Origin: a virus
Taxonomy: Duplodnaviria > Heunggongvirae > Uroviricota > Caudoviricetes
Length of the DNA stretch: 64,000 bases
Reading direction: 5' to 3' (one strand)
IMG/VR virus record: IMGVR_UViG_2814123389_000006
Location: 1 to 64,000 of that record
The position numbers and the translations under genes were made by a program. The notes beneath the pieces are model-generated. The model was not told the origin of the DNA. It made no database searches and saw only the letters and a list, made by a program, of their open reading frames with translations. This document shows, one piece after another, positions 30,775 through 46,218 of the stretch (position 1 is the first letter of the stretch; each line of letters opens with the position of its first letter).

Positions 30775-31082
30775 TTCCGCCGCCCACGCCCCCACCTCCG
30801 CTAGAGCTGGAGGACGTCGACTCGATCCCCGACCAAGCGCACGACTGGGGCCGGGAATGGGAGAGCGACTACCACAGCGGCCGTGTCTGCAATGTGTGCG
30901 GCGAAAACTCGGAATGCCTGTCGTGCTACCCGAATTCAAAAGCGCTCGAGGAGATGGATTGCCTTCGCGCTCAGGCCGAGGACCGCAACTTCATCCGCGA
31001 GCGCGAGCACCGAGCCGCGACCGCGCGCTACGAGGCGCAGATGGACTACTACCGCGAAATCACGAAAGGCGCTGACAGTTGA
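30771..31082 (+). CDS. Hypothetical Cys-containing protein
   Basis: GTGA-coupled. CNVCGENSECLSC. Confidence 0.4.
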   Translation: MIPPPTPPPPLELEDVDSIPDQAHDWGREWESDYHSGRVCNVCGENSECLSCYPNSKALEEMDCLRAQAEDRNFIREREHRAATARYEAQMDYYREITKGADS

Positions 31083-31090
31083 GCATTTTC

Positions 31091-31945: not shown

Positions 31946-31949
31946 TCCG

Positions 31950-33437
31950 ATGACCGATTTCACGCCCGTCGCTGCGCTGTTCCAGACCGATGCCTACAAG
32001 CTCGACCACCGCCGCCAGTACGGGCTGAGCGGCAACGTCACCCGGGTCTACTCGAACTTCACCAACCGCAAGTCCCGGCTGCCCGGCGTTGACCACGTCG
32101 TCCACTTCGGACTGCAGGCGTATATCCAGAAGCACCTCGTTGAGGCCTTCAAGCCGTTCTTCGCGGCCGACGAATCTGTGGTCACTGAGCTGTACTTCCA
32201 GCGCGTGAAGTCCATTCTGGGACCCGATGCGGCGCGCGCGATCGGCGTCAAACACATTCGTGACCTCCACCAATTGGGCTACCTGCCGTTGCGGTTCTGT
32301 GCTGTCCCCGAGGGCACGCTGGTACCCATCCGAGCACCGAGCTTCACCGTGGAGAACACCGCCCCAGAGTTCTTCTGGCTGACCAACTACATCGAGACCG
32401 GCTTGTCGGCCGGCTACTGGCAGGCCAGCACATCGGCCACCATCGCCCACGAATATCGCAAGGCGCTCGAGGCGGCGGCTGAACGGACCGGAGCCCCCAT
32501 CGAGGCAGTCGATTGGCAGTGCCACGACTTCAGCTATCGGGGCATGTCGAGTCACGAAACCGCGGCGGCGTCGGGCGCAGCCCATCTGCTGTCGTTCACG
32601 GGCACCGACTCGTTGGTGGCGCTGGACTGGATCGACCGCTACTACGGCGGGGAGTACGTTGCGGGATCTGTTGCGGCGACGGAGCACTCGGTGATGTGCA
32701 CCGGCATCGCGACCGCCGGGGAGTTGGAGACGTTCGAGCGGCTGCTCGACCTGTACCCGTCCGGCATCGTGTCGGTCGTCTCGGACACTTTCGACCTGTG
32801 GCGCGTCCTCACCGAGTACCTGCCGAAGCTGAACGACAAGATCATGTCGCGGGACGGCAAGTTGGTGATCCGGCCAGACTCCGGCGACCCGCTCAAGATC
32901 CTGTGCGGCGACCCGCAGGCGACCGCGGGAAGCCCCGCGCACCGCGGCGTGGTGGGGTTGCTGCTCGATCAGTTCGGCGGCGCCGAGAACGAAGCAGGGT
33001 TCATGGAGTTGGACCCGTGCGTGGGCGTGATCTATGGCGATTCCATCACCATCGAGCGCGCGAACTCCATCACGGCGAAGTTAGCGCTGATGGGATTCGC
33101 CTCCACCTCGGTGGTGTTCGGCGTCGGCAGCTACACCTACCAGCACAACACCAGGGACACCTTCGGCAGCGCCATGAAAGCCACCTGGGCCGAGGTCGAC
33201 GGCAAGGGCGTGGACCTGTTCAAGAACCCCGTCACCGATGACGGCACGAAGCGCAGCGCCACCGGCCGCCTCGCTGTCCTGCCAACTGGCCCAGATGGTG
33301 CCCTGGAGCTGCACGAGCGGGCTGGCGGCTACCAGCAGCAGCACTCGGTACTCCAGCCCGTTTGGGAGGACGGCAAGTTCATCGAGCGGCAGACATTCGC
33401 CAATGTCCGCGAGGTGCTCGCCGCACAGGCCCGGTAG
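31950..33437 (+). CDS. Nicotinamide phosphoribosyltransferase-family enzyme (NAMPT/NadV-like; candidate Namat of NARP1)
   Basis: N-terminal FQTDAYKLDHRRQY (the DSYK motif of NAMPT). About 495 aa. ATG 31950, in frame with track ORF 31830..33437. Confidence 0.75.
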   Translation: MTDFTPVAALFQTDAYKLDHRRQYGLSGNVTRVYSNFTNRKSRLPGVDHVVHFGLQAYIQKHLVEAFKPFFAADESVVTELYFQRVKSILGPDAARAIGVKHIRDLHQLGYLPLRFCAVPEGTLVPIRAPSFTVENTAPEFFWLTNYIETGLSAGYWQASTSATIAHEYRKALEAAAERTGAPIEAVDWQCHDFSYRGMSSHETAAASGAAHLLSFTGTDSLVALDWIDRYYGGEYVAGSVAATEHSVMCTGIATAGELETFERLLDLYPSGIVSVVSDTFDLWRVLTEYLPKLNDKIMSRDGKLVIRPDSGDPLKILCGDPQATAGSPAHRGVVGLLLDQFGGAENEAGFMELDPCVGVIYGDSITIERANSITAKLALMGFASTSVVFGVGSYTYQHNTRDTFGSAMKATWAEVDGKGVDLFKNPVTDDGTKRSATGRLAVLPTGPDGALELHERAGGYQQQHSVLQPVWEDGKFIERQTFANVREVLAAQAR

Positions 33438-33474
33438 TGCCACCCGTGATTGCGCCTCACTCCGGCGGCGTCCA

Positions 33475-33867
33475 GTGACCGACCAGGATTGGCCGCCGCC
33501 GGGGTGGACACAGCAGGACTGCGATCGCCTGGTGGCCATCACCTACCGGCAGCTCTGCGAGCAGATCGCGGCCGGCGAGGTAGCGGACCCCGCGACCGCA
33601 TTGGCTGACATGGACCGGCTTTGGTCAGGCCGCTCGGTGCAGTGGATGCTGCCAACTCTGCAGATGCCGGGCGAGGACGACTGGCTGACCGACGAGGAAG
33701 TGGCCCGCTGGGTGGGCTGCCGGGCTGTCACGGTCCGCAACTGGGCGAGCCGGGCCCGCCGTGGTGGCGACGGTGTCATCCCAATCAACGGTCGCTACCG
33801 GTGGGGCGATGTCCAGGAGTACCGGCAGCGCCAGAACCAACGGCGGCAGGGACAGTCGGATGGATGA
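33475..33867 (+). CDS. Excisionase/AlpA-type HTH DNA-binding protein
   Basis: HTH LTDEEVARWVGCRAVTVRNWASR. GTG 33475, in frame with track ORF 33238..33867. Confidence 0.45.
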   Translation: MTDQDWPPPGWTQQDCDRLVAITYRQLCEQIAAGEVADPATALADMDRLWSGRSVQWMLPTLQMPGEDDWLTDEEVARWVGCRAVTVRNWASRARRGGDGVIPINGRYRWGDVQEYRQRQNQRRQGQSDG

Positions 33868-33887
33868 GGCGCAAATCTACACAAATG

Positions 33888-33916
33888 TTGAACACAATTG
33901 TGTGGATTTGTATGAT
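33888..33916 (+). promoter_or_regulatory. Sigma-70/SigA-like promoter TTGAAC-17-TATGAT with embedded 12-bp palindrome ACACAATTGTGT
   Basis: -35 at 33888-33893, -10 at 33911-33916, palindrome at 33892-33903. -10 ends 7 nt before ATG 33924, implying a leaderless transcript. Confidence 0.45.
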
Positions 33917-33923
33917 CGGCGCT

Positions 33924-34562
33924 ATGAAGCACTTCTTGAGCAGCACCCAGGTCGCAGAACGCCTTGGCATGACCCGTGATGCGTTGAATACCAAGATCCG
34001 TGCCGATGCCTTCATTCCGCCTGATGTAGTGGTTGGGGACCGATATCAGGGCTGGTCGGTTGAGTCCATTGAAAAATGGGCCGAGTCTGGCGGTGGGGAT
34101 CGAATCCGGGTCGACAGCGACAAACTGTTCGATGTGGTTACCAGTATTCGGCGGGCGGCCGAGAGGGTTCGCGCATTTGGCCGTAGCCCGGAAGGTGGCA
34201 ACGGCACGGCGATTGCGGTTCCGTCCGACCTTCACATGCTTGCGGGACGGTTGGAGGCGGAGGCCCGCAGCTGGCTGGAGGTACGGGACTACTCCGGCAA
34301 GCGTTTCAGACAGCTCGTCGATGTCGCGACGGGTGTCACTGAGATCAGGGTTGAGTTTGAGCAGGTTCCGACGCTCGTTGGCTCGCCCGCGTTACCGCCG
34401 GATGTCCGAAGGCTTGAGCTTCACGCCGCAGCGGACGAGATGGCATTGGCGGCGGAGGAAATTCGCCGCGCTTTGGTGGCGAAGTCTTCACGCCACTACC
34501 AAGAGTCGCTGCTGAAAAAGGCGGCGCAGATCCATGAGTTCGCTGATGCGCTAATGACATAG
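33924..34562 (+). CDS. HTH (excisionase/MerR-like) regulator, probably leaderless
   Basis: N-terminal HTH LSSTQVAERLGMTRDALNTKIRADAFIPPD...GWSVESIEKWAE. ATG 33924 (alternative 33912). Confidence 0.5.
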   Translation: MKHFLSSTQVAERLGMTRDALNTKIRADAFIPPDVVVGDRYQGWSVESIEKWAESGGGDRIRVDSDKLFDVVTSIRRAAERVRAFGRSPEGGNGTAIAVPSDLHMLAGRLEAEARSWLEVRDYSGKRFRQLVDVATGVTEIRVEFEQVPTLVGSPALPPDVRRLELHAAADEMALAAEEIRRALVAKSSRHYQESLLKKAAQIHEFADALMT

Positions 34563-34640
34563 TCGGGCAATGGTATTCGACGAGTGGAACACAAACGCCT
34601 GGGCTGCGGTGCCCGCACTGACCTGAAAGGCCCCTGACGC

Positions 34641-34925
34641 ATGACGACCCATACGCATGACAATCGACTCGGCATGGTGCGCAACAGGCTGAAGCTTCGC
34701 GGCTACACCGTGTCGGAGATCGGGGAGGGCAAGTTCGGCGGCCGCGTGTTCACGATCGAGCAGGGCCCAGATGGACGCCCGGTCGCGGTTGACGTCACCG
34801 ACCTGGCGACGCCCAACGGTCAGCCGTCCGACATCAGGTGGGGCGCCTCTGGGTTCGACGATCTGGCTCTGACGCCGGACCAGTTGGTTGGCCGCATTGT
34901 CGAGTCGCTTGAGGCGCTGCCGTGA
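34641..34925 (+). CDS. Hypothetical protein
   Basis: Track ORF. Confidence 0.4.
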   Translation: MTTHTHDNRLGMVRNRLKLRGYTVSEIGEGKFGGRVFTIEQGPDGRPVAVDVTDLATPNGQPSDIRWGASGFDDLALTPDQLVGRIVESLEALP

Positions 34926-35215
34926 GTTCCCTGTCGAGCCGTCAGCGGCGCTGTTTGCAGGCGCTGGCCGTGCAGGGGGAGTGGCCGGCCGCGCGCGGGG
35001 ACCACGGGTGGCGCGGGGTTGCGGGGCAGGCGCCGTGGGCGGCGGATTCCCGGCGGCTGCTGGCGTCGCTGGCCCGGCTCGGCCTGGTGGTGGACGAGTC
35101 GACCACGACGGTGGGCCGGTTGCCGTCGACTGGCCTTGGGTTGAGTCTTCGGGCGCGGCGGTACGTGATCACCGAGCGCGGGAAGGTGATAGCGGATACG
35201 CTATCGAAACGTTGA
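34922..35215 (+). CDS. Hypothetical protein
   Basis: GTGA-coupled. Confidence 0.35.
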   Translation: MSSLSSRQRRCLQALAVQGEWPAARGDHGWRGVAGQAPWAADSRRLLASLARLGLVVDESTTTVGRLPSTGLGLSLRARRYVITERGKVIADTLSKR

Positions 35216-35240
35216 GAAGTGCTAGCACCCACGCTATTAT
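35212..35240 (+). promoter_or_regulatory. Promoter TTGAGA-17-TATTAT upstream of hicA (leaderless)
   Basis: -35 at 35212-35217, -10 at 35235-35240, ATG at 35247 (6 nt downstream). Confidence 0.4.
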
Positions 35241-35246
35241 TTCGGT

Positions 35247-35507
35247 ATGGCGAGCGTGGAAAAGATCGAGGCCCAGATGCGGGAATCGGCGGCCAACGTG
35301 GCGTACAACGACCTCTACAAGGTCTGCGTCCACTACTTCGGCGACGCCCGCCAGAAGGGCTCCAGCCACGCTGTGTTCCGCACCCCGTGGCAGGGCAACC
35401 CGCGCGTCAACATTCAGAATGACCACGGCAAAGCCAAGGCCTACCAGGTCAAACAGGTCTTGGAAGCCATCGCCAAGCAGGCCGAGATGAGAAAGGGGAA
35501 CCACTGA
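35247..35507 (+). CDS. hicA: HicA-family toxin (mRNA interferase)
   Basis: 86 aa. GSSHAVF...H motif region. Immediately upstream of a HicB-like gene with TGATG coupling. Confidence 0.55.
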   Translation: MASVEKIEAQMRESAANVAYNDLYKVCVHYFGDARQKGSSHAVFRTPWQGNPRVNIQNDHGKAKAYQVKQVLEAIAKQAEMRKGNH

Positions 35508-36091
35508 TGTCCAATCACTACACCTACCGGGCCGAGTGGTCGCCCGAGGACAACGAATACGTCGGGCTCGTTGCCGAGTTCCCGAGCTTGTCCTGGCTAG
35601 CCCCGTCCGCGGGCGAGGCTATCGCCGGCGCAGAGCGCCTGGTCGATGACATCTTGGCTGATATGGCCGAGACGGGTGAAACCCCGCCCGAGCCGCTAAC
35701 CGAGCGTCGCTACAGCGGGAACCTGTCGGTGCGTACCAGCCCGGAGCAGCATCGCCAGCTCACCATCGAGGCCGCCGAGCAAGGCGTCTCGGTTAATCAG
35801 TGGATCATCCAGAAGCTCGGCAAGGACTGGTCCGGGGCCCGCGCCGGTGTCGCCTCGGGTGTCGAGGAGGTGCTTGCGAATGTGGTTGGCCAGCGGGTTA
35901 AGCCGAAGTTTCCGTCCTTCGACCTGATGGTCCGGGAGGTCGCAGAGTCGATCATGGATCCCGTGGATATTGGGTCGTTCGCTCCGTCCTTCAAGCAGCC
36001 GGAAGGGGCGGCATTTCTAGTGCTGTACAACGACACTGCTGGCACCCACGTGGTGAGCCTCGGGGAGGTCAAGTCGAAGGCGAAGAAGTAG
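35507..36091 (+). CDS. hicB: HicB-family antitoxin (HicB N-domain plus RHH DNA-binding)
   Basis: N-terminal HicB-like YRAEWSPEDNEYVGLVAEFPSLSWLAPSAGEAIAGAERLV. RHH segment SGNLSVRTSPEQHRQLTIEAAEQGVSVNQWIIQKL. Confidence 0.65.
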   Translation: MSNHYTYRAEWSPEDNEYVGLVAEFPSLSWLAPSAGEAIAGAERLVDDILADMAETGETPPEPLTERRYSGNLSVRTSPEQHRQLTIEAAEQGVSVNQWIIQKLGKDWSGARAGVASGVEEVLANVVGQRVKPKFPSFDLMVREVAESIMDPVDIGSFAPSFKQPEGAAFLVLYNDTAGTHVVSLGEVKSKAKK

Positions 36092-36150
36092 CGCGCAGGC
36101 TTCGCGTGTGACCGATGTCGCACGGATCGTGAAATCTGTTGGACGCCAAG

Positions 36151-36166
36151 CTGTACCCCGGTACAG
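36151..36166. terminator. Perfect inverted repeat CTGTACC-CC-GGTACAG (possible terminator after hicB)
   Basis: 7-bp perfect stem. Confidence 0.25.
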
Positions 36167-36187
36167 TTCAACATGTTCGGGTGATGT

Positions 36188-36320
36188 GAGCCGGACGCAG
36201 ATCGGTTATCCACTTCTAATGGAGAGGTCGCGGGTTCGAGTCCCGTCACCCCGTTCGCGGGGTGTAGCTCAGTCGGCAGAGCGCTAAACCCCGGTCCGCA
36301 GACACACGCCCACATCGCCT
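36188..36320 (+). ncRNA. Y-RNA-like (YrlA-type) ncRNA candidate 1 with permuted tRNA-like module
   Basis: T-arm GCGGG-TTCGAGT-CCCGT (36230-36246). 3' acceptor CACCCCG joined by TTCG loop to complementary CGGGGTG. tRNA D-arm TAGCTCAGTCGGCAGAGCGC. No anticodon arm. 5' GAGCCGGA...ATCGGTTATC. Ends with ACACGCCCACA. Confidence 0.45.
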
Positions 36321-36341
36321 GAGTAACAACTCAATTGCTGC

Positions 36342-36470
36342 GAGCCGGAGCATGATCGGTTATCGATTTGGGATCGAGAGGTCGCGGGTTCGAATCCCGC
36401 TCACTCAGGTGGCCTGGGGGATAGCTCAGTGGTAGAGCGCTAAAACCCGGTCGGCACAACACGCCCGCAG
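36342..36470 (+). ncRNA. Y-RNA-like ncRNA candidate 2 with tRNA-like T-arm/acceptor-like stem/D-arm module
   Basis: T-arm GCGGG-TTCGAAT-CCCGC (36384-36400). Stem-loop CTCAG-GTGGC-CTGGG. D-arm TAGCTCAGTGGTAGAGCGC. Same 5' GAGCCGGAG...ATCGGTTATC and 3' ACACGCCCGCA framing. Confidence 0.45.
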
Positions 36471-36496
36471 CACTCAACAACTGAACATTGCGATGC

Positions 36497-36640
36497 GAGC
36501 CGAAGCGAATCGGTTAACCAATGGTCCGTGGGTTCAAATCCCACTGCACGCCAATGCAGTTCGGTGTGTATGGCAGAGCGGCCTAATGCAACTGGCCTCA
36601 AACTCCCGGTACGCGCACCACGCCCGCATCGCTCCAGGTC
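36497..36640 (+). ncRNA. Y-RNA-like ncRNA candidate 3 (degenerate tRNA-like module)
   Basis: T-arm GTGGG-TTCAAAT-CCCAC (36528-36544). Stem-loop CTGCA-CGCCAA-TGCAG. Degenerate D-arm (TGGCAGAGC). 5' GAGCCGAAGCGAATCGGTTAACC. 3' CCACGCCCGCA. Confidence 0.35.
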
Positions 36641-36662
36641 CACCCAATTGATCAATCGGTGT

Positions 36663-36735
36663 GAGCCGGACGGCGGTCGGTTACCTTCATGCGGAATACC
36701 CCGGTCGCCACCAACACGCCCACACCCCAGACCCC
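36663..36735 (+). ncRNA. Y-RNA-like short stem-loop unit 4 (no T-arm)
   Basis: GAGCCGGACGGCGGTCGGTTACC...CCGGTCGCC forms a roughly 9-bp stem (GGCGGTCGG/CCGGTCGCC). Ends with CAACACGCCCACA. Confidence 0.3.
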
Positions 36736-36744
36736 CTGGTGCGC

Positions 36745-36812
36745 GCCGGATTTCGATCAGTTATCACTGAGAATGATTCCTCCGGTCGGAGACTCACACG
36801 CCCGCACCCCCC
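36745..36812 (+). ncRNA. Y-RNA-like short unit 5 (degenerate)
   Basis: GCCGGATTTCGATCAGTTATCAC...CCTCCGGTCGGAGACTCACACGCCCGCA. Shares the 5' and 3' motifs of the other units. Confidence 0.25.
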
Positions 36813-36824
36813 TCAACAAAGGAG

Positions 36825-38483
36825 ATGGCAGTGGACGTGTTGGCGACCGTGAGCACCCGGCGGACCCCGCAGACGGAGAAGGCCGACCCGCGCCAAATCC
36901 GAAACGCTGCAGGCGGATACACGTTCGCCGTCGATGACTGGGCGCGCGTCCACCGGTTCCTCACCCTCGGTGTCGATGGCGGAACCTACTACACGGGCGC
37001 CGCCGAGCTGGCCAAGGACAACGCTGAGGTGATCTTGCGCGCCGCCGCGACCGACCCGATCGAGCTGGTCCGCCGCATCGTCGAAGTCTCGACGGCTGGC
37101 CGCGCCCCCAAGCAGAACCCCGCCCTGTTCGCGCTCGCGATCGCCGCCGCGGCCGACGACGTCGACGGCCGGCGCGCCGCGCTGGCCGCACTGCCCCAGG
37201 TGGCCCGCACCGGCACCCACCTGTTCCTGTTCGCGCGGTACGTCGAGCAGTTCCGCGGTTGGGGCCCAGCCTTGGCGAAGGGCGTTGCCCGCTGGTACAC
37301 CGATCGCAACGTCGACAAGCTGGCCTACCAGGTGGTGAAGTACCGGCAGCGGGAGGGCTGGACCCACCGGGACCTGCTGCGCCTGTCGCATCCCGTGACC
37401 GTCGAGCCGGAACGCCGCGCTCTGTTCGATTTCGTGACTCGTGGCTCGCTCGGCGCAGTCCCCGAAGCGCTGGACCCCGGCGAGGTCCGGGTGGGACTCC
37501 CGGCGATTATCGAGGACTTCACCGCCGCGCAGAACAGCACCTCCATCCACGACTGGGTTGACCTGATCGGCCGCGGAAACGGGCTGTCGTGGGAGATGCT
37601 GCCCGACGCAGCGCTCGGCCACGCCAAGGTGTGGGAGGCGCTGATCGATCAGGGCATTCCGCAGACCGCGCTGATGCGGCAGCTCCCGCGCCTGACCCGT
37701 CTGGGTCTGGCCGTGGGCGATACCGGTCGGACGATCGCGGCCCAGTTGCAGGACCCTGTTCGGCTGAAGACCGGCCGGGTGCATCCGATCAACGTCCTGG
37801 TGGCTCAGCGCACCTACACGTCGGGCCAGTCGGCCCGCGGAGAGTCGACGTGGACGCCGGTCTCGAAGATCAGCGACGCGCTCGACGCGGCGTTCTACAA
37901 CGCGTATGGCGCGGTCGAGCCGTCCGGTAAGCGGATCCTGCTTGCCCTGGACGTGTCGGGTTCGATGACGGCGCCCGTGTCCGGGCTGCCGCTGTCGTGC
38001 CGGGAGTCCTCCGCCGCGCTGGCGATGGTCACCGCGGGAACCGAGCCCAACCACGACATCGTGGGCTTCACCGGCCGGCACGGGAACAACGGTTACGGCG
38101 CCTACGTCACGTCGACGGCGTTGACCGAGCTGGATATCAGCCCGCGCCGGCGCCTGGACGACGTGTGCCGCTACGTCGGCGGCCTGCCGATGGGGATGAC
38201 CGACTGCGCTCTGCCGTTCACCTGGGCGGCCGAGCAGAAGCGGGTCTACGACGCGGTCGTGGTCCTCACCGACAACGAATCGTGGGCAGGACCGGTCCAC
38301 GTCCACCAGGCGCTGCGGCGGTACCGGGAACAGATCAATCCCGAGGCGCGCCTGATCGTCGCGTCGATGACGGCTCGACCCAACACGGTTGCGGACCCGA
38401 AGGACCCGCTGTCGCTGGACGTGTCGGGCTTCGACACGACCGTGCCGCAGGTGATCAGCGACTTCGCGGCCGGTCGGATCTGA
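36825..38483 (+). CDS. rsr: Ro60 ortholog (Rsr; TROVE domain plus C-terminal vWA/MIDAS domain)
   Basis: RBS AAAGGAG. TROVE-like N-terminal region (GYTFAVDDWARVHRFLTLGVDGGTYY). C-terminal vWA with MIDAS DVSGSM. Preceded by the Y-RNA-like array. Confidence 0.7.
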   Translation: MAVDVLATVSTRRTPQTEKADPRQIRNAAGGYTFAVDDWARVHRFLTLGVDGGTYYTGAAELAKDNAEVILRAAATDPIELVRRIVEVSTAGRAPKQNPALFALAIAAAADDVDGRRAALAALPQVARTGTHLFLFARYVEQFRGWGPALAKGVARWYTDRNVDKLAYQVVKYRQREGWTHRDLLRLSHPVTVEPERRALFDFVTRGSLGAVPEALDPGEVRVGLPAIIEDFTAAQNSTSIHDWVDLIGRGNGLSWEMLPDAALGHAKVWEALIDQGIPQTALMRQLPRLTRLGLAVGDTGRTIAAQLQDPVRLKTGRVHPINVLVAQRTYTSGQSARGESTWTPVSKISDALDAAFYNAYGAVEPSGKRILLALDVSGSMTAPVSGLPLSCRESSAALAMVTAGTEPNHDIVGFTGRHGNNGYGAYVTSTALTELDISPRRRLDDVCRYVGGLPMGMTDCALPFTWAAEQKRVYDAVVVLTDNESWAGPVHVHQALRRYREQINPEARLIVASMTARPNTVADPKDPLSLDVSGFDTTVPQVISDFAAGRI

Positions 38484-38687
38484 GTGGACCCACGTGCGCA
38501 GCAAGCCCGGGAGCATCACCGCAAGGCGGCAGACGCTTCCGGGCTTGCTGATCGGCACCGCGCTCAGCGCGACAATCTCGTCCGGCAGATATGGGCGACG
38601 GCGCGCGCCCAGTGGACGTACGCGAAGCTGGCGAAGGCCATCGGCTGCTCCCCTGAGCTCATCGCGAAGATCGTCAATCGCCGCTGA
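38484..38687 (+). CDS. Small HTH DNA-binding protein
   Basis: GTG 38484 immediately after rsr stop. HTH TYAKLAKAIGCSPELIAKIV. Confidence 0.4.
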   Translation: MDPRAQQAREHHRKAADASGLADRHRAQRDNLVRQIWATARAQWTYAKLAKAIGCSPELIAKIVNRR

Positions 38688-38759
38688 ACTGCAGTTCTAT
38701 GGGAAATACCAAGAATGTCATCTCGGTGTGGCACACTTGGCCTTGCCGACGATAAGACG

Positions 38760-38815
38760 CCCAGGGGGTGTCTTCCCCAGGAGGGATAGTCGGCATTTAA
38801 CTTTTCTGGCCCCAG
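38760..38815. terminator. Candidate bidirectional terminator between convergent genes
   Basis: GGGGG-TGTCTT-CCCC hairpin followed by TTTAACTTTTCTGG. Lies between the + gene ending 38687 and the - gene ending 38797. Confidence 0.25.
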
Positions 38816-39456
38816 GGCGTCCAGAGCGTCACCAGCGTGGGTTCCACCGCCGTGGTGTACCAGTGCGTTGTCTTGCCGGTGAGGTGCCGCTGAACGGCCC
38901 ATAGGCCGTAGTCGGCCACCTGGAGGCCCCAGGACGTTGCAGCGTCCCAGTAGCAAAGCTTGATCACGCGGTTGACCTGTGCGCAAACCTCTGCCAGCGC
39001 TGCTTTCGCTTGCTGCCGGCGTGCGGCGGTGGCGATGGTGCCGACGATGACGAAGAGTTCGTCCTGTGGGGTGCACACCCACTTCGCGACCTCCTTGAAG
39101 TGGAGGTACCAGGCCATCTTGTAGAGGTACATCTCGCCCTTGGCCTGCACGTATGGGTAGGCGTTGGACTTGCAGAGGAACGTGGTGTCGAACCTGGGTG
39201 CCTGCTGGCGGATCAGGTCGTACATTTCGTTCTTGGTCGGCTTGCTGTCGTTCACCGCGTGGAACCCGCGGGGCAGGGTGAGGCCCGAAGCCTCGATCTG
39301 CGCGCGGAGCTTGAGCCCGTCATAGAGGTGCTCGCCGTGGGAATGATCGGGGAACACCGCGGTCCCGAAGCCGAAGTAGTCGGTCGCGCCCGCTTTGCCG
39401 TCGGGGGAGTAGTCGAGGTTGCCGGTTTCGTCGGCATACATGTAGATGGTGGCCAC
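38797..39456 (-). CDS. DUF3800-family protein (minus-strand moron)
   Basis: N-terminus (M)ATIYMYADETGNLDY matches the DUF3800 M-x-IY-x-DESG hallmark. GTG start. Opposite strand to the phage backbone. Confidence 0.5.
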   Translation of the reverse strand: MATIYMYADETGNLDYSPDGKAGATDYFGFGTAVFPDHSHGEHLYDGLKLRAQIEASGLTLPRGFHAVNDSKPTKNEMYDLIRQQAPRFDTTFLCKSNAYPYVQAKGEMYLYKMAWYLHFKEVAKWVCTPQDELFVIVGTIATAARRQQAKAALAEVCAQVNRVIKLCYWDAATSWGLQVADYGLWAVQRHLTGKTTHWYTTAVEPTLVTLWTPWGQKS

Positions 39457-39817
39457 GTCGTTGTGCTGTCTCTCTCTCGTTTGCCCCAGGCTCGTTGGAG
39501 CCCAGGTTTAGCTGCGCGGACCTCGACTGGGCCCTGTCGGAGAGTGGACGGCGGCACGCGATGATCACCGAGATGATGACGTATCCCGGCGTATCGCTTA
39601 GGATCGTGGCGTCTCTTGCCAAAGACTCACGAGCCCTGCTGGAGTCCGCCTCCGGCAGGGCCTCGGCATTTTCCGCGGGTGGAGGTTGTTCCACCTCGCA
39701 TCAGTCTATTGCTGGGGTCATCCACCCGCGGTGACCGCGACACAAAATGTTGGCGTGTCGCTACGAAATGCACCCGAACTCGGGCGTGTCGCCTTTTGGG
39801 CGTGTCGAGCCCCGACG

Positions 39818-40156
39818 TCAGCCGTGGGGGAGAAACAGCACCGTTTCGGGCATGAACACGGCGGCGAAGATGCACAGGGCTATGTGGGTGACGAGCATCG
39901 TGCGGAGGAACAAGCCGAGCCGGTGTCGGGGTGGCTCATCTGGTGCTCGCCTGCGTTCCGTGATGACCGAGGTCACTACGAGCACGGCTGAGATGAGCAA
40001 TGCAACGAACGCCGCCGTGCCGAACGACACCGTGTAGAAGCCGACGAGCGCGAGCATGAGCACCAGCCAGACATACACAGCCAGTCCAGCGGCTACGCCG
40101 GCCACGACGATCCCCGCGGACTGCGCCAGCCGCCTGGGTGATTGGTTGGCAACCAT
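39818..40156 (-). CDS. Small membrane protein (candidate immunity protein for upstream toxin)
   Basis: 3-4 TM helices. ATG is 3 nt after the toxin stop (TGAccgATG). Confidence 0.5.
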   Translation of the reverse strand: MVANQSPRRLAQSAGIVVAGVAAGLAVYVWLVLMLALVGFYTVSFGTAAFVALLISAVLVVTSVITERRRAPDEPPRHRLGLFLRTMLVTHIALCIFAAVFMPETVLFLPHG

Positions 40157-40159
40157 CGG

Positions 40160-41293
40160 TCATGGACCTTTCGTCAGCACGGGCACCGCGCCCTCGGCTG
40201 CCGCGATGTTGGCCGCGAGCCGGTCGATGTAAGGCTGCCACGTCAGCGCGGCGACCTGACCGTAGCCCGCCCGGATCGGCGCGCCGACCCAGCCCTCATC
40301 TGTGCCGGGCCCGTGAGCGATGTAGCCGCGTATGCCCAGATGCATCTCGCCACCCGATTCGTAGAAGCGGAAGTGGATCGTGCTGCCTTCACCGTCGACG
40401 TGGCCGGGCAGCGTCGCGAACTCGATATTGATCTCGTTCGCCGTCTTGTCGATCTGGGTCACCTCGACCGGGAAATCAGCCGCGTGGATGCCGAACCGCT
40501 CAATTTCGAGGGGTAGGTGATCACCGACTTTGGGCATCTTGGCCGGCGCACCTCCCATCGGGAAGTTGCAGTTGAAGCAGCGGTTCAGCTCTTTCCACAC
40601 GTCATCGACGCTCATGATCGTTCCGGCGCTGGGCTTCCCGGGGGCGTCGAGCCACACGCGGGTCGTGAGATCGAGGTTGTACTCCCAGGGCTTGTCGTGG
40701 TCGAGGATCGGCCACTGCTTGAAGTCAACTGCGTGAACGATCCCGTCGGCGGGGAAGTAGTCACCCTCGCCGGCGAACCGGATGCTGTCGAGCTCGGTGG
40801 CGCTCGCCTCGAGGCGGCTGCCGATCAGCCTGTCGGTCTGCAGGAGCTGATCGGCGTTCCACCGGATGTTCTCGGCGTGCTCCGTCGCCATCCTGTACCG
40901 GTCGGCCATTGTGGACACGTCGATTCGCCGGGTGTCCCTGACGGAGAGGTCCTCACCGACTCGGAACCCAGCGGCCTCGGCCTCGGCGATGGCTTCCAGG
41001 ACCGCGCGTACAGCGGCTCGCAGGTCTCCCGCGCCGTCGGTGGCGATCGCCGCAGCGCGGCGGGCGACGTCCCCGTGCTGACGGACTACCGCCAGGTCGG
41101 CTGAGGTGCGATCGGCGGCCGCGTCGCTGCCAGCGCCGGACCAACCATCGGCGGGTTGGTTCTGCTGCTCGAACAGAGTCTCGGACTGGCCCGCCGACTC
41201 CACCCAGCGGGTGGCCATGGACTCGAGGTGGGTGATGTCCCAGTTCTCGATCTGCGATCGCGTCAGCGCACTACCGGAGGCCGTCGTGCTCAT
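40160..41293 (-). CDS. WXG100-domain polymorphic toxin candidate (T7SS/ESX-exported; C-terminal toxin domain of unknown activity)
   Basis: N-terminal helical domain with WxG motif (ADGWSGAGSDAA). Divergent C-terminal about 200 aa (FPADGIVHAVDFKQW...NRCFNCNFPMGG...). ATGA-coupled to upstream 92-aa gene. Followed by small membrane ORF. Confidence 0.55.
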   Translation of the reverse strand: MSTTASGSALTRSQIENWDITHLESMATRWVESAGQSETLFEQQNQPADGWSGAGSDAAADRTSADLAVVRQHGDVARRAAAIATDGAGDLRAAVRAVLEAIAEAEAAGFRVGEDLSVRDTRRIDVSTMADRYRMATEHAENIRWNADQLLQTDRLIGSRLEASATELDSIRFAGEGDYFPADGIVHAVDFKQWPILDHDKPWEYNLDLTTRVWLDAPGKPSAGTIMSVDDVWKELNRCFNCNFPMGGAPAKMPKVGDHLPLEIERFGIHAADFPVEVTQIDKTANEINIEFATLPGHVDGEGSTIHFRFYESGGEMHLGIRGYIAHGPGTDEGWVGAPIRAGYGQVAALTWQPYIDRLAANIAAAEGAVPVLTKGP

Positions 41294-41568
41294 ATCGACC
41301 TCGATAGACCGTCAGCTGCGCCGTCGTCGGTGTCGGTGTACCCCGCGCTGGCGGTGCGCAGATCTGATGCGTGGCGGCCGGCGCGGGCGGACTGGCGAGC
41401 GCGGGCCGAGGCGAGTGCCGTGTCGAACGACGAGGCGCCCGCGTGGCTGGGTTGGCTGCCTGCCGGCGGCCCGCTGCTGGTGCCGGTTGCGAGCGTTTCT
41501 GCGATGTCGTCGCTCCGCAAAGACGCCGCGTTCAAGCGCGCGCTGTCCACCGATAGTTCGTCTGCCAC
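41290..41568 (-). CDS. Small ESX/WXG-associated partner protein (hypothetical)
   Basis: RBS GAGGGG precedes GTG start. ATGA-coupled to the toxin gene. 92 aa, Ala/Ser-rich. Confidence 0.4.
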   Translation of the reverse strand: MADELSVDSARLNAASLRSDDIAETLATGTSSGPPAGSQPSHAGASSFDTALASARARQSARAGRHASDLRTASAGYTDTDDGAADGLSRSI

Positions 41569-41903
41569 CTAAGTGCCCCTCGTCACAGATGTAACTCGCA
41601 CGCTATCGCCCGGCCGATCTGTCGGCAAACACGCCAGTTGCAGTCGCTCATCGAGCAGCCCGTCGATCCGCGCGGTGTTCGGCGGCCGATCGCCCGCGCG
41701 CCTGCAGGCGGCCCGTATCGCTGCCAGCACCCGGAGCTCGGCGTCGATCATCCTGATGGTTCTCATGATGGTTGGACGCGCGCCGAGCCGCTGCGGTTCC
41801 ATTCGCGTGAATTATCAAGTTGCACAACATGTTTCGCGTATTGCACGGTATGCTGACCGCGAGGGCAGGCAAGGGCCAGCCCCACCGAGAGGAGCAATCC
41901 CCC

Positions 41904-42128
41904 GTGAACATCACCAGCACCTGGAGCGAAGCAGCCCAGTTCTACGCATGCCACGACCCCGGCAGCGACGTCCACGAGTTCTGCCTCTACATGCAGGGCG
42001 GCCCCGACGCCCCGGCCTGGCGGCCGATGGACGTTCCGGCGATGTGGCGGCGCGTGCACGCCGACGACATGCTGCCCGTCGACCCGGCCACCGTGCCGGC
42101 GCTCGCGGCCGTGGCGGTTGCGCGATGA
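41904..42128 (+). CDS. Hypothetical protein
   Basis: RBS GAGAGGAG precedes GTG 41904. In frame with track ORF 41820..42128. Confidence 0.35.
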   Translation: MNITSTWSEAAQFYACHDPGSDVHEFCLYMQGGPDAPAWRPMDVPAMWRRVHADDMLPVDPATVPALAAVAVAR

Positions 42129-42790
42129 GCGCCCGCGACGAGGCAGTCCGGTTCTACCGCGCCTGGCTGCGCATCGCCGCTGCCGCATCGGTGCTCGGCA
42201 ACGTGGCCCACGCGACCCTGTCCCACCCGCCCTCGTGGATCGTGGCGGTCGCCGTCGCGGTCGGCCCGCCCGTGGTGTGGCTGGCCGCCGTCCACGGCCT
42301 GTCACTGTTGGTCCGGGCGCAGATCCGCGGCTGGACGTACGCATTCGCAGCGGTGGGCACCCTTCTGCTCGGCGGGCTGGCGGCCTTCGTGTCGTTCAAC
42401 GCGCTGTCCGATCTGGTCCACCGGTGGGCGGGATACTCGGGGCTGGCGGCGGTGCTCGTCGCGCTGGCGGTCGACCTGTCGATGGGGATCTCCACCCTGG
42501 CGCTGATGGCATTGACCCGACCGGGCCTGGCCGCCGCCGGAGAGGGGAACGCGGACGTGGAGTACTCGACCCCCGAGGTGTGGGGCCTGCACCCGGTGCT
42601 GAGTGTGGTGGAGCCGATCGAGAAGCAGCCCGGCGAACGCCGCGACCAGACCATCACCCTGCGGGTCACCGAGTCCGAGATGGTCGAGGTGGAGAGCCTG
42701 GCTGCTGGTGTGAACCGCCGGACCGCCGAGGCTGCCCGAGACGTCGTGCTCAGCGCGGCCCGGCTGCCCCGAGTGGCGGACGCAGCGTGA
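42125..42790 (+). CDS. Membrane protein (about 4 TM)
   Basis: ATGA-coupled. In frame with C-terminal part of track ORF 41573..42790. Hydrophobic helices (VAVAVAVGPPVVWLAAVHGL; LLLGGLAAFVSF; LAAVLVALAVDL). Confidence 0.45.
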   Translation: MSARDEAVRFYRAWLRIAAAASVLGNVAHATLSHPPSWIVAVAVAVGPPVVWLAAVHGLSLLVRAQIRGWTYAFAAVGTLLLGGLAAFVSFNALSDLVHRWAGYSGLAAVLVALAVDLSMGISTLALMALTRPGLAAAGEGNADVEYSTPEVWGLHPVLSVVEPIEKQPGERRDQTITLRVTESEMVEVESLAAGVNRRTAEAARDVVLSAARLPRVADAA

Positions 42791-42829
42791 GCGCCACAGT
42801 GCCCCCACTGCACTCAGAAGGGCGAAACG

Positions 42830-43075
42830 ATGAGCGCCGTGCTTAGCCGCTATGCGCGGCAGATCATCGCCAGCCGAGGCGTGAAGGTCGCCGACTACAT
42901 CAAGTTCAACACGGGCGGCGACACCTGGCACGGAGACCGTTGCGGCTGCCCCGATGACCGCTGCAGCGGCGGTTACCACCACGACGGCGGCGACGACGAA
43001 TGCAGCTGCCTCCCGGCAGTGCTCGATCAGATGCTCGGCGAGGGCGTGTGGGCGCACCTGCCGAAGCCGACATAA
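42830..43075 (+). CDS. Small Cys-rich protein, first member of a tandem family
   Basis: CGCPDDRCSGG...ECSC. Stop TAA embedded in conserved junction CCGAAGCCGACATAAGGA. Confidence 0.45.
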   Translation: MSAVLSRYARQIIASRGVKVADYIKFNTGGDTWHGDRCGCPDDRCSGGYHHDGGDDECSCLPAVLDQMLGEGVWAHLPKPT

Positions 43076-43290
43076 GGAACGCAGAATTATCGGCACGCAA
43101 GGGGGGCTGATATGAACCGATTCATCTGGTGGCATCGACTCAGGGGCCATCACATTGCGAAAGTTCCTCGCGCCGGATAGACCAGTAACTTTCTGGGAGT
43201 GCCGGAACTGCCCGAGCGATAGAGGTTGGGCAGCCGCGAGCAGCGAACGGGAGTTGCAGACGCTCCCGAAGACGACATAAGGACGAAATC

Positions 43291-43470
43291 GTGGGCAACA
43301 CAACGACCCCACTGAGTGAGCGCCGAGCCGCTGGAATCCGAGCGGCACAAGCGAACAGCTGCCCGCGCTGCGGACGCAGCAATGCACTGACCCGCCAATG
43401 CCGCGCGAACGGATCACGCATTTGCCGCTGGGAAGCGTCGGGCCGATGCCCACGACCCAGCCCGACATAA
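43291..43470 (+). CDS. Small Cys-rich protein, family member
   Basis: GTG start 8 nt after ATAAGGA. CPRCGRS...C...C. Ends PSPT*, inside junction repeat CCCGACATAAGGAG. Confidence 0.3.
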   Translation: MGNTTTPLSERRAAGIRAAQANSCPRCGRSNALTRQCRANGSRICRWEASGRCPRPSPT

Positions 43471-43479
43471 GGAGACGTG

Positions 43480-43614
43480 ATGGACAAGAAACCGCAGTGC
43501 TGTTCGCGATCGTCTGAGGTCGTCATCTGCCATTGCCACGCTCACTGGCACCCCCATCGCCGCGGGCCAGAGTGCAAGTCGCGCACCAACTCAAACGGGC
43601 AGAAGGGAGGGTGA
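43480..43614 (+). CDS. Small Cys/His-rich peptide (44 aa)
   Basis: ATG 6 nt after GACATAAGGAGACG. CCS...CHCHAHWHPH...C. Confidence 0.3.
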   Translation: MDKKPQCCSRSSEVVICHCHAHWHPHRRGPECKSRTNSNGQKGG

Positions 43615-43859
43615 TGAAGATCCGTCTCGAGCTGACGAGCCGATACAAGGGCACACACTGCACGTTCTGCGACCGGTCGATTCACGAGGCTGACCCCGGC
43701 CTGCCGGGCTGGCTCAGCGAGCGGGTGGGCAAGGCCAAGTTCTGGCGGCACAAGCACACCGCCGAGCACAAGGGCAACCGCCCGACCGGTGCCCCCACTC
43801 CGGCGCCGACGCTCGATGTCGACGCATTCGAGCGCCGCGCCCGTGAGCGTCAGCGATGA
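43614..43859 (+). CDS. Small Cys/His-containing protein
   Basis: ATGA-type coupling (GGTGATGAAG). CTFCDRSIH...H.H. In frame with track ORF 43533..43859. Confidence 0.4.
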   Translation: MKIRLELTSRYKGTHCTFCDRSIHEADPGLPGWLSERVGKAKFWRHKHTAEHKGNRPTGAPTPAPTLDVDAFERRARERQR

Positions 43860-43963
43860 CCGGGATCCTGATGCTCGGGGCGCTACTCGCAGTGATCGTC
43901 GGGCCCCTGTGGGTCCTGGACCGCTATATCCGGTCAAGGGGTGGCGAGGAGTGGCATTGGTGA
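43856..43963 (+). CDS. Possible 35-aa membrane peptide
   Basis: ATGA-coupled at both ends. MTGILMLGALLAVIVGPLWVLDRYIRSRGGEEWHW. Confidence 0.25.
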   Translation: MTGILMLGALLAVIVGPLWVLDRYIRSRGGEEWHW

Positions 43964-44151
43964 TGAGCGAGTGGGCCCCGGGCCGCTGGTGGCGGGTGAC
44001 CTACGTCGTCGACGGTGAGCAGAAGCTGTGGTGCGAGACCTCTGCCGAGGACGAAGCCCGCGAGGCACTCCAGAGCGTGCCGTCCGGCGCCGAGGACGTG
44101 AAGCTGGAACGACTCTGGGAACGGCGCGCCGCCGAGTGGCGATCAGCCTGA
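43963..44151 (+). CDS. Hypothetical protein
   Basis: In frame with track ORF 43789..44151. TGATG coupling. Confidence 0.4.
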   Translation: MSEWAPGRWWRVTYVVDGEQKLWCETSAEDEAREALQSVPSGAEDVKLERLWERRAAEWRSA

Positions 44152-44162
44152 CGCTGAGTTCC

Positions 44163-44744
44163 TCACTCGTCCCAGAGTGAGCTGACGAAATCGTGATCGT
44201 CTGCGGCCTGGGCCGCAGCAGTGTTCTTCTTGGCGTTGTCCAGGAATAGCAATGCGTCCACAAGGTCTGTGAATTCGTCAGCACTGTCGAAAAGTTCGTT
44301 CGGATACAGGCGCAACGGGCCACCCATTAGCTCCACAGAGAACCCACGTTGGGTCAGAACGACGTTGAAATTACCTATCTCGCCGTGGAGGAAGTCGGAT
44401 ATGCCATCGCGAACTGCTCCGGCTGATGGACCGTGGTACGTCGCGCCGATTGCATTTGTGCGCGGAGGCCACTCGGGTCGCTGAATTGTTGCTCGCATCC
44501 GCACGAGGACATCGTCCAACGCAGCGGAAAGATTGGTGCGCAGAGATGCGATGCCCTGTGCTCCCAGCTTCCGGGCAATGTGCGGCTGGGACAGCGTGAC
44601 CGATTTGGCGTGGTCTATGAGTCGTGGGCGAATTTCGCGTTCAAGTTTCGAGGCGAGGTCTCGTTTGGCTTCAGCAACTCGATCATGAGCCTGCGTCTCG
44701 ATCGCTCTGCACCGCTCCAGCTCCCGGGCTGTTTTGTCGCTCAT
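44163..44744 (-). CDS. Hypothetical protein (minus-strand)
   Basis: Internal ATG (MSDKTARELERC...) of track ORF 44163..44930 chosen. Opposite orientation to flanking genes. Confidence 0.4.
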   Translation of the reverse strand: MSDKTARELERCRAIETQAHDRVAEAKRDLASKLEREIRPRLIDHAKSVTLSQPHIARKLGAQGIASLRTNLSAALDDVLVRMRATIQRPEWPPRTNAIGATYHGPSAGAVRDGISDFLHGEIGNFNVVLTQRGFSVELMGGPLRLYPNELFDSADEFTDLVDALLFLDNAKKNTAAAQAADDHDFVSSLWDE

Positions 44745-44853
44745 GACCCGCAGCCTAAACGTGCACGGTGACACTGTGGTGGGTCGCAGCATCCGCTGGT
44801 CCGTGTCGCGTGTTACAAATGTGTGCGGGCACTGCTGTGCCTGAAATCGCCTA

Positions 44854-44890
44854 CCGAAACCCTCGTAGCGGGCTGCTACGGGGGTTTTCG
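44854..44890. other. Imperfect 16-bp inverted repeat CCGAAACCCTCGTAGC / GCTACGGGGGTTTTCG in divergent intergenic region
   Basis: 14 of 16 complementary with a 5-nt loop. Lies between minus-strand gene start (44744) and + gene 45111. Confidence 0.35.
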
Positions 44891-45110
44891 TGTTTCTGGC
44901 GGTCGCTTCGCACCGCGGCGTCGGCGTCAACGTCTGGCGGATTTCCAGGCAAAGCTCGCGCGATCCCGCTGCTCCTGCCCCCGCGTGATTCGCCAGTCAG
45001 CCCCGGCCTTGTGCCCGGGCGGTTACCCAGGACCACAACTCCTGTGAACAGGGCGAGCTGCGCGCGGCGCCGCGGTGCGAAGCTCCCGAGCCCCGAGCGG
45101 AGACGAATCC

Positions 45111-45284
45111 ATGGACTTCACCAATGCCCCGCTGCAGCCCCGTGTGCTGCAGTTCCCCCGGCTTACGTCCTGGCCGATGAGCACGGGCGAGCGGCTGCTG
45201 ATGCTGGCGCTCGCGATCCACGCCGCGCGAACCGCGCCGCAGCTCCCGCCCGACCTCGGGTTGTCGAGCTGGTGGGGCGTCTGA
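45111..45284 (+). CDS. Hypothetical small protein
   Basis: ATG 45111 within track ORF 45075..45284. Confidence 0.3.
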   Translation: MDFTNAPLQPRVLQFPRLTSWPMSTGERLLMLALAIHAARTAPQLPPDLGLSSWWGV

Positions 45285-46214: not shown

Positions 46215-46218
46215 CGAC

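Follow-up and report, generated by a model that had tools for sequence, protein, structure and literature searches.

What kind of region breaks the orderly gene array of a temperate mycobacteriophage, and is its cargo a single acquisition, a system selected as a whole or a set of independent passengers? The question is raised by the central part of the window, that is, the 64,000 nucleotides at the start of the IMG/VR virus record IMGVR_UViG_2814123389_000006 (Caudoviricetes), where a reading of the sequence alone, hereafter the original prediction, had delimited a mosaic accessory island at about 33.4-45.1 kb and had described it as a hotspot of functions expressed from the lysogen. The analysis presented here points to a related answer that we consider probable: the stretch would be an accessory zone, permissive for recombination, in the genome of an integrated temperate mycobacteriophage, and would be pieced together from independent modules with two classes of cargo. 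The true extent of the zone is about 31.1-47.0 kb, which places it near the distal end of the rightward early array and a few kb upstream of the packaging genes.

The prophage and the relatives compared

The window is 100% identical to contig LZIH01000199.1 (assembly GCA_001667445.1), has a GC content of about 67% and contains one protein for which the source gives the name Mycolicibacterium fortuitum. In that contig, just upstream of the window (L249 1-966), a host aminotransferase gene abuts the left side of window position 1 and is followed by a leftward repressor with a helix-turn-helix (HTH) domain (1-306, minus strand) and then by a rightward cro-like gene; judged by this gene order, the window begins at the left end of an integrated prophage. 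From the contact between aminotransferase and repressor, the left attachment junction would lie no more than about 250 bp from the window start. In the Mycobacterium abscessus prophage prophiGD43A-5, attP is found inside the repressor gene. PHROG profiles identify an antirepressor, RecT and DNA methyltransferases within the left 17 kb, and a ParB-methyltransferase, terminase, portal and major capsid protein at 48.9-56.4 kb; recognised structural genes reach about 59.9 kb and phage-type open reading frames (ORFs) go on to the end of the window. Seen from the left limit given originally, the closest DNA-modification genes are those at 13.3-17.3 kb, about 17 kb away. The terminase shares 72% identity with those of Mycobacterium phages Typha, Hilltopfarm, Cracklewink and Bipper and 69% with those of the M. 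abscessus prophages prophiGD43A-5 and prophiT37-1, similarities that suggest a temperate mycobacteriophage akin to the Bipper/Typha group and to prophiGD43A-5. When the whole stretch was compared with phages by megablast, the sole match covered about 245 bp of the Y-RNA region.

Closer relatives were found elsewhere. L164 is a Logan contig about 92% identical to the window that spans its positions 32.4-52.4 kb; L247 (contig k127_29647150) and L250 belong to a near-identical phage in the ENA metagenome ERZ22666056; L002 is a metagenome-assembled genome of Mycobacterium, and L245 a locus of M. syngnathidarum. Differences in gene calls among L250-L253 are artefacts of the gene caller and do not correspond to sequence differences.

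Variability of the zone among relatives

The mosaic character that the original prediction had proposed to check against related genomes is borne out by these comparisons. L164 differs from the window by five cassette-level events, all of them inside 33.85-46.9 kb, and is collinear with it over 46.9-52.4 kb. In place of the gene of a 212-amino acid (aa) protein (g33924) and its promoter it has 2.25 kb with five genes, the neighbouring gene g34641 is missing, the cassette of the DUF3800 protein gives way to a RhuM gene while Ro60 and the Y RNAs stay unchanged, the first block coding for Cys-rich peptides is replaced, and the QueC-like gene is gone, with 76 bp in place of 46216-46890. The near-identical phage represented by L247 and L250 is 99.9% identical to the window over 41.5-54.7 kb except for a 383-bp indel, and virtually identical over 5-13.5 kb. 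With an overall identity of 97-99.9%, L247 diverges at 35.5-41.5 kb, most strongly over the HicB C-terminus and the Y RNAs. In its third Y-RNA module (window positions 36442-36640) the closing, Ro-binding stem is kept and the internal tRNA-like domain is substituted by unrelated sequence.

The indel provides the one case in which exchange at a gene boundary is seen directly. The segment 43079-43461 (plus strand) is bounded by direct repeats of the 12-bp sequence CCGACATAAGGA, which occurs at 43067-43078, 43272-43283 and 43462-43473 (three copies against 0.15 expected) and which consists of a stop codon plus the ribosome-binding site of the next gene; it ends three consecutive small ORFs. L247 and L248 are without 43079-43461, and their junction falls exactly at the repeat. 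In L164, a different Cys-rich ORF ends in a motif similar to CCGACATAAGGA.

More distant relatives share an outline of the zone. In the prophiGD43A-5 group the order is HTH anchor, Y RNA/Ro, small HTH gene, two conserved genes, ParB-methyltransferase and terminase, with a spacing between anchor and Ro that ranges from 1.2 to 8.7 kb, and with a BrnT toxin-antitoxin (TA) pair at the position that hicAB has in the window. L002 has its NARP1 pair on the downstream side of Ro, not upstream; beyond this pair, an ORF listing of L002 filtered by GC content at third codon positions (GC3) is uninformative, the GC3 of that genome being lower. Taken as a whole, the zone would consist of ten or more separable modules arranged about a better conserved core, made up of a 130-aa HTH protein that serves as anchor (HTH130), the Y-RNA array, Ro60 and a 67-aa HTH protein, and recombination at gene boundaries or close to them would add, remove and exchange the modules. 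Purifying selection acts on all genes that L164 has in common with the window (pN/pS below 0.6). GC3 looks foreign only in g33924, g43291 and g44163, most cargo genes being similar to the backbone.

Gene organization, promoters and hairpins

The departure from tight plus-strand organization that had been noticed between 33.9 and about 45.1 kb is evident. A self-trained codon-score gene call gives about 57 consecutive plus-strand genes from 436 to 33867, mostly with overlaps of 4-8 nt, and tight plus-strand coupling returns at about 45.1 kb and continues to 59.9 kb or further. The stretch that separates the two arrays has strand switches and the largest intergenic gaps between recognised genes of the window; gaps of 733 bp (36092-36824), 109, 361, about 215 and 330 bp occur in it. 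The minus-strand intervals that had been listed are correct but their count of four was too low: there are five clear genes and a probable sixth (orf77), which together with the repressor at 1-306 are the only credible minus-strand genes of the window.

Both sigma-70-like promoters predicted originally were found as described, placed for leaderless starts. The one at 33888-33916 (plus strand, TTGAAC-17-TATGAT) precedes the ATG of g33924 at 33924, 8 nt past the -10 hexamer, and contains a 12-bp perfect palindrome, ACACAATTGTGT, at 33892-33903. The one at 35212-35240 (plus strand, TTGAGA-17-TATTAT) matches the consensus at 10/12 positions, carries the 10-bp perfect palindrome GTGCTAGCAC in its spacer (35219-35228), and has its predicted +1 at the A of the ATG that starts hicA (35247). 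Palindromes of this kind have a base rate of about 1 per 530 bp; their location within a promoter is the look expected of an autoregulated promoter, as which both sites are predicted to function. The number of promoter matches in the region is not significant alone (3 versus 1.3 +/- 1.1 in shuffles). Both sites are intergenic, 7-8 nt ahead of an ATG, and they are the sole sense-strand matches in the 64 kb, the rest of which holds one other sigma-70 match, in antisense.

As for the bidirectional terminators and hairpins that had also been proposed, one stands. The hairpin at 44856-44888, with a stem of about 14 bp (15 pairs according to the scanner) flanked by an A-run and a U-run, has a folding z of -4.1 on the plus strand and -3.8 on the minus strand, with 0/200 shuffles as stable. 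It is the only clearly non-random hairpin and sits at the boundary with the tightly coupled rightward genes, which makes it a candidate bidirectional terminator. Those at the convergent junctions 38688-38796 and 44140-44230 are marginal (z between -1.7 and -2.5).

Two probable classes of cargo

The modules seem to fall into two classes according to when they would act. The first comprises forward-strand modules read with the early genes and probably acting during infection: NARP1, which may restore NAD+ when defences deplete it, and the Ro60/Y-RNA module, with a possible part in RNA surveillance or tRNA mimicry. The second comprises self-contained cassettes that are probably expressed from the prophage, namely hicAB and g33924, each with its own consensus promoter, operator-like palindrome and leaderless start, and the reverse-strand cassettes, formed by the DUF3800 gene, by orf77-EspC-PT-Imm (where PT and Imm stand for polymorphic toxin and immunity) and by g44163. 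In RNA-seq of M. abscessus lysogens, PT-Imm and reverse-strand TA cassettes were found to be expressed from prophages that are otherwise silent (PMC8092301; PMC10654092). By analogy with these lysogens, expression from the prophage is plausible for the promoter-bearing and reverse-strand cassettes alone. The proposal of a hotspot expressed in lysogeny is thus narrowed to part of the cargo. NARP1 is unlikely to be a lysogeny function because it is a counter-defence that acts during infection. Ro60 and the Y RNAs are also unlikely to be one and more likely act during infection, since Ro60 is found in large mycobacteriophages: its relatives occur in 355 phage records, among them mycobacteriophages of about 155 kb such as ET08 and Alice, which we take to be lytic myoviruses.

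The NARP1-like pair and the left part of the zone

The pair that opens the zone had been included in the original cargo list; it is present, but at 31079-33437, to the left of the limit of 33440 that had been set. Its first gene (31079-31945, plus strand) codes for an Adps-like homologue of phosphoribosyl pyrophosphate synthetase (PRPS) with weak matches to the Pribosyltran and ribose-phosphate diphosphokinase models, far under the equivalog cut-offs. The second (31950-33437, plus strand) codes for a Namat-like protein of the NAMPT family, whose best matches in the PDB are the phage Namat structures 9W5X and 9W5W (461 bits, versus 217 bits for canonical NAMPT) and which matches NCBIfam PRK09198 with 491 bits. 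The order is that of described NARP1 systems (Adps plus Namat; bioRxiv 10.1101/2024.02.11.579819; PMC12774641), with a PRPS-like gene just 5' of a NAMPT-like gene, an adjacency seen in 80 phage loci; what differs is that the pair moves relative to Ro, as in L002. The two genes are accordingly designated a NARP1-like pair, for which chemistry specific for ADP-ribose pyrophosphate (ADPR-PP) is a prediction.

The gene of HTH130, an HTH/excisionase-like protein (33475-33867, plus strand; phrog_1969, phrog_66), is 96% identical in L164 and has homologues of 38-41% identity upstream of Ro in the M. abscessus prophage group, a distribution that suggests a conserved backbone anchor. It is followed by g33924 (33924-34562, plus strand), whose 212-aa product matches phrog_597 and phrog_66 only over an N-terminal HTH; it is a lineage-restricted cassette and has a GC3 of 0.68 (z = -3.6 versus the backbone). 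Two small plus-strand ORFs come next, one of 94 aa (34641-34925) that is absent from L164 and has no family match, and one of 97 aa (34922-35215) that is 92% identical in L164 and 45% in L002 (pN/pS 0.18).

HicAB, Y RNAs and Ro60

Downstream of the second promoter, a probable HicA-like toxin of 86 aa with a predicted leaderless start (35247-35507, plus strand) is followed by a HicB antitoxin of 194 aa (35507-36091, plus strand; PF05534, E 3.7e-16, 59 bits versus a cut-off of 21; phrog_9151). The toxin reaches 13.8 bits with PF07927 versus a cut-off of 27, finds no match in NCBIfam, PHROG or PDB, and has no sequence relative among solved structures, so that the HicA half of the HicAB pair proposed originally stays below threshold; gene order, the sub-threshold Pfam match and the NCBI names of its homologues (several of the 1777, at 70-81% identity, are called 'toxin HicA') argue for the assignment. 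As in the hicAB family, the toxin comes first and the hicA stop overlaps the hicB start (at 35507), and, as in TA modules of M. abscessus prophages (PMC8092301), the pair has its own predicted promoter with an operator-like palindrome. In prophiGD43A-5, this position is taken by the BrnT TA pair. Unlike the TA modules of M. abscessus prophages, hicAB lies here on the strand of the early genes and not on the opposite one, and, unlike the hicAB family, it has a HicA too divergent for the Pfam cut-off and a HicB with a C-terminal extension of about 85 aa.

The 733-bp gap between hicB and Ro60 is occupied by a Y-RNA-like array of five tandem modules (36178-36812, plus strand). With approximate ends, these are Y1 at 36178-36320, Y2 at 36330-36476, Y3 at 36486-36636, Y4 at 36652-36732 and Y5 at 36734-36812. 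A closing stem in which UGUG/CACA alternates with UGCG/CGCA as compensatory changes is common to all five, as is a 5' motif, GCCGRA; Y1-Y3 have tRNA-like T-arms. The motif at the 3' end of the modules is repeated 3-5 times upstream of Ro in about 21/160 relatives. Rfam YrlA scores reach 37.8 and 33.5 bits, under the gathering score of 69, hence the designation as Y-RNA-like, for which Ro binding is predicted. An ARAGORN call of tRNA-Arg(tct) and a borderline Rfam tRNA match (36177-36254 and 36320-36408) overlap the YrlA-like modules, and a 'tRNA-Thr' annotated in prophiGD43A-5 (MW584167.1 26001-26079) likewise overlaps a YrlA-like module; such calls probably correspond to the tRNA-like domains of Y RNAs and not to decoding tRNAs.

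The Ro60 orthologue (36825-38483, plus strand) combines TROVE and vWA domains (Pfam E 3.5e-48 and 4.3e-55). The 552-aa form called here is not on record, probably since the start used in the database gives 550 aa. Immediately after it, a gene for the 67-aa HTH-like protein (38484-38687, plus strand; weak HTH_31 match) shows the low pN/pS of 0.04, a sign of strong purifying selection, and a gene of this type is found downstream of Ro in 75/161 loci. It comes right after Ro60 in phages, prophages and apparently chromosomal actinobacterial loci (for instance L005, L063-L065, L075 and L080), and no description of it as a Ro60 partner was found in the literature examined. The locus agrees with the Ro60 (Rsr)/YrlA Y RNAs of mycobacteria and mycobacteriophages (PMC4201824) in the position of the Y RNAs directly 5' of Ro60, in the tRNA-like T-arm, the domain with acceptor-like and D-arm parts and a Ro-binding stem whose 5' strand is conserved. 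It departs from them in the number of tandem modules (five, of which two are short and lack a tRNA-like domain), in scores that all stay under the Rfam gathering score, and in the swap of the internal domain of one module between near-identical phages.

The DUF3800 slot

On the minus strand downstream of the small HTH gene lies a gene for a 219-aa DUF3800 protein (38797-39456; PF12686, E 1.9e-7, 32.3 bits versus a cut-off of 21). It has both the N-terminal DE motif (YADETG) and the C-terminal QVAD motif, in agreement with the DE and QxxD motifs of the family (PMC7736814). The cassette at 38673-39593 is a swappable unit: at the same place L164 has its RhuM gene, which matches the PADLOC candidate system PDC-S05 at E 3e-149 and is the sole protein, among those searched, to match a PADLOC model above chance level. 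The DUF3800 protein has no relative in the phage-record collection and no sequence relative among solved structures. Members of the family have been described with associated structured RNAs (PMC5737381, PMC7736814), whereas here no such motif (DUF3800-I to XI) was detected, there being no Rfam match at E<=1 over 38600-45200.

A putative ESX-type toxin cassette

The next reverse-strand unit is an operon headed by orf77, a probable 77-aa gene (41569-41802, minus strand) that is called in the source record, has a GC3 of 0.76 and, compared with L164, a pN/pS of 0.11 (14 synonymous and 4 non-synonymous changes). After orf77 come a gene for a 92-aa small ESX partner of the EspC family (41290-41568, minus strand; Pfam T7SS_ESX_EspC, E 9e-6, 26.5 bits versus a cut-off of 23.5), with a YTDTD (YxxxD) motif near its C-terminus, and the gene for an ESX-type polymorphic toxin-like protein of 377 aa (40160-41293, minus strand) with a WXG hairpin at its N-terminus and an SRPBCC/START-fold C-terminus. 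The AlphaFold model of this protein (pLDDT 86.7) places W51-S52-G53 in the loop that joins helices 21-44 and 54-107, and WxG is conserved in the alignment. Genes annotated as 'polymorphic toxin' in M. abscessus prophages share 43-50% identity with the N-terminus of the protein. Its residues 1-195 recur in proteins with RNase A-like, amidase or other domains at their end, and residues 200-377 in proteins with PPE, DUF4226 or WXG100 domains at their start; because each half occurs with other partners, the C-terminal domain appears interchangeable. Toxicity and ESX-dependent secretion are putative, by analogy with described cassettes. A search for relatives of the SRPBCC domain retrieved none in 50,697 phage records and none in IMG/VR. 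In other mycobacteria, domains of this fold are fused to PPE, DUF4226 or WXG100/EspC N-termini (P0055, P0066, P0040, P0058), with H298 and D300 invariant and H307 and H318 nearly so, and the domain appears to be a recurrent cargo of ESX substrates.

The last gene of the operon codes for a 112-aa polytopic membrane protein (39818-40156, minus strand), hydrophobic at about residues 10-68 and 80-111, that is a putative immunity protein; it follows the toxin gene also in L164 and L245. Just downstream of it, at about 39750-39810 on the minus strand, there are three copies of CGACACGCC, which resembles ACACGCCC, the 3' motif of the Y-RNA modules. In L245, a homologue of the three-gene cassette at 75% lies at the edge of a different mobile element of M. 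syngnathidarum. The cassette has the features of the PEST/PT-Imm cassettes of M. abscessus prophages (PMC8092301, PMC10654092): a small ESX partner, a toxin-like gene and a small putative immunity gene, a WXG hairpin at the N-terminus of the toxin-like protein with an interchangeable C-terminal domain, and transcription against the phage backbone. However, those cassettes are described next to attL or attR and this one is about 40 kb from the left prophage end; the SRPBCC/START-fold domain, the EspC-family partner and the probable fourth small gene heading the operon are also different.

The right part of the zone

On the plus strand, to the right of the toxin operon, a 102-aa ORF (41820-42128; 91% identical in L164, pN/pS 0.30) precedes a 221-aa DUF2637-like membrane protein (42125-42790; phrog_2342, E 7e-35) and an 81-aa Cys-rich ORF (42830-43075) that is absent from L164. 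Two small Cys/His-rich ORFs with a weak zinc-finger match come after it, of 59 aa (g43291, 43291-43470) and 45 aa (43477-43614; 93% identical in L164), and then two further small ORFs, at 43611-43859 (88% identical in L164, pN/pS 0.36) and 43963-44151 (96% identical, pN/pS 0.31). The reverse-strand ORFan g44163 (44163-44744, 193 aa) has a GC3 of 0.62 (z = -4.9) and a pN/pS of 0.31. It has no family match in protein-family searches and just two related protein clusters among 5.8 billion, and its single-sequence AlphaFold model (pLDDT 54) is too poor for a structure search. To the right of the end coordinate given originally, a gene for a QueC-like PP-loop protein (46219-46971, plus strand; phrog_1550, E 1.3e-36), absent from L164, is translationally coupled in the rightward array; no further gene of the 7-deazaguanine pathway was noticed in the window.

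The cargo listed by the original prediction is in this way largely recovered, with HicB, the Y-RNA-like array with Ro60, DUF3800, the toxin cassette and the Cys-rich ORFs in place, and with HicA and the YrlA matches below their thresholds.

Alternative explanations

One rival explanation is that nothing more than ordinary early-region mosaicism is at work, and that the zone looks special only through its nameable and reversed genes. Several observations weigh in that direction and hence against the interpretation favored here. The whole early region is mosaic when compared with distant relatives, with homologues in prophiGD43A-5 for about one third of the early genes, anywhere in the window, and the near-identical phage (L250) diverges as well at 0.7-4.5 kb and from about 13.5 kb, which makes the zone one of at least three divergent patches. 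The first of the other two extends from the antirepressor N-terminus through the region of a DnaQ-like exonuclease, and the second begins at the start of a C5 methyltransferase. Close relatives cover only 0.7-14 kb and 32.4-54.7 kb, so that the zone is not comparable with 14-32 kb. The functional side of the interpretation also meets adverse points: the search upstream of the reverse-strand genes gave no consensus promoter; terminator-like sites are enriched neither in the region (5 versus 6.2 +/- 2.8 in shuffles) nor anywhere in the window; nine island proteins searched with PADLOC gave no match save a chance-level HTH; and the C-terminal fold of the toxin is a ligand-binding one and not a recognised toxin fold. 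Against ordinary mosaicism, in turn, 5/5 cassette differences of L164 fall inside 33.85-46.9 kb with 5.5 kb to the right collinear; all non-repressor reverse-strand genes, both sense-strand promoter matches and the longest gaps concentrate here; and 5-13.5 kb is virtually unchanged in the near-identical relative. On balance we regard this explanation as unlikely.

A different possibility is that HicA (acting as RNase toxin), Ro60 with the array of Y RNAs, and DUF3800 (an RNase H2-like protein) constitute one selected, RNA-centred system of defence or counter-defence. RNase-type TA pairs lie directly upstream of Y RNAs in two lineages, HicAB in the window, L002 and L164 and BrnT/antitoxin in prophiGD43A-5 and prophiT37-1; small reverse-strand genes flank Ro also in Sparky; DUF3800 genes associate with structured RNAs and retrons (PMC5737381, PMC7736814); and the divergence between near-identical phages peaks over HicB, the Y RNAs and Ro. 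Nevertheless, among the 161 Ro loci HicAB accompanies Ro in just about three that are not near-identical to the window, Ro and Y RNAs stand alone in hundreds of phages, the DUF3800-associated motif is missing from the interval searched, and in L164 the unrelated RhuM occupies the DUF3800 slot with Ro and Y RNAs as they are here, all of which leaves a jointly selected system improbable. The remaining option, a single genomic island acquired horizontally in one insertion event, would fit the compactness of the zone, its strand switches and the low GC3 of two of its genes, and the original prediction had indeed spoken of one island. This idea was dropped because no repeat family flanks the zone as a whole; there is neither integrase nor transposase, no direct or inverted repeat flanks it, the GC3 of most cargo genes is like that of the backbone, the modules vary independently in L164, L247, L002 and L245, and the Ro/HTH core is syntenic in distant relatives. 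One insertion event is therefore very improbable, and a recombination-permissive zone that collects independent modules accounts best for the pattern.

Within such a zone a more far-reaching reading can be entertained, tentatively and as rather doubtful: Ro60 and its Y RNAs might be a landmark repeatedly joined by RNA-directed toxin or defence cassettes across unrelated actinophages, with the Y RNAs diversifying in an arms race and with an ESX-secreted SRPBCC effector in addition. If so, HicAB or BrnT would have been inserted upstream of the landmark, and DUF3800 or RhuM together with reverse-strand genes downstream. The arms race would be reflected in a kept Ro-binding stem and an effector/tRNA-like domain exchanged between phages otherwise 99.9% identical, and the Y RNAs might serve, for example, as decoys or adaptors versus tRNA- or RNA-targeting immunity. 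A further new element would be an effector secreted through ESX, whose SRPBCC domain would bind a lipid or other ligand and which would be paired with an immunity protein in the membrane.

Concluding remarks

The morons and variable regions of temperate phages, including the defence hotspots of P2/P4-like phages, consist of self-contained cassettes set between backbone genes. The zone resembles them in cassettes with their own promoter or reversed orientation, in their exchange among close relatives and in a slot that holds either DUF3800 or RhuM; it differs in that these cassettes are mixed with infection-phase counter-defence genes and with an RNA-protein module. By similarity, every module can be assigned, or at least likened, to a family already described (PEST/PT-Imm, hicAB, Ro60/YrlA, NARP1 and DUF3800), and the region illustrates well a type of phage region that is already known, not a new type of system, which leaves current views of phage mosaicism and of prophage-encoded functions in place. 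It also offers several experimental handles: two predicted autoregulated leaderless promoters, the DUF3800/RhuM slot, a repeat-bounded indel that reveals the mechanism of exchange, an internal ESX-type toxin cassette with an SRPBCC domain new to catalogued phages, and a five-module Y-RNA array with a swapped domain. The zone thus constitutes a compact and well-delimited example of how temperate mycobacteriophages carry and exchange their accessory cargo.

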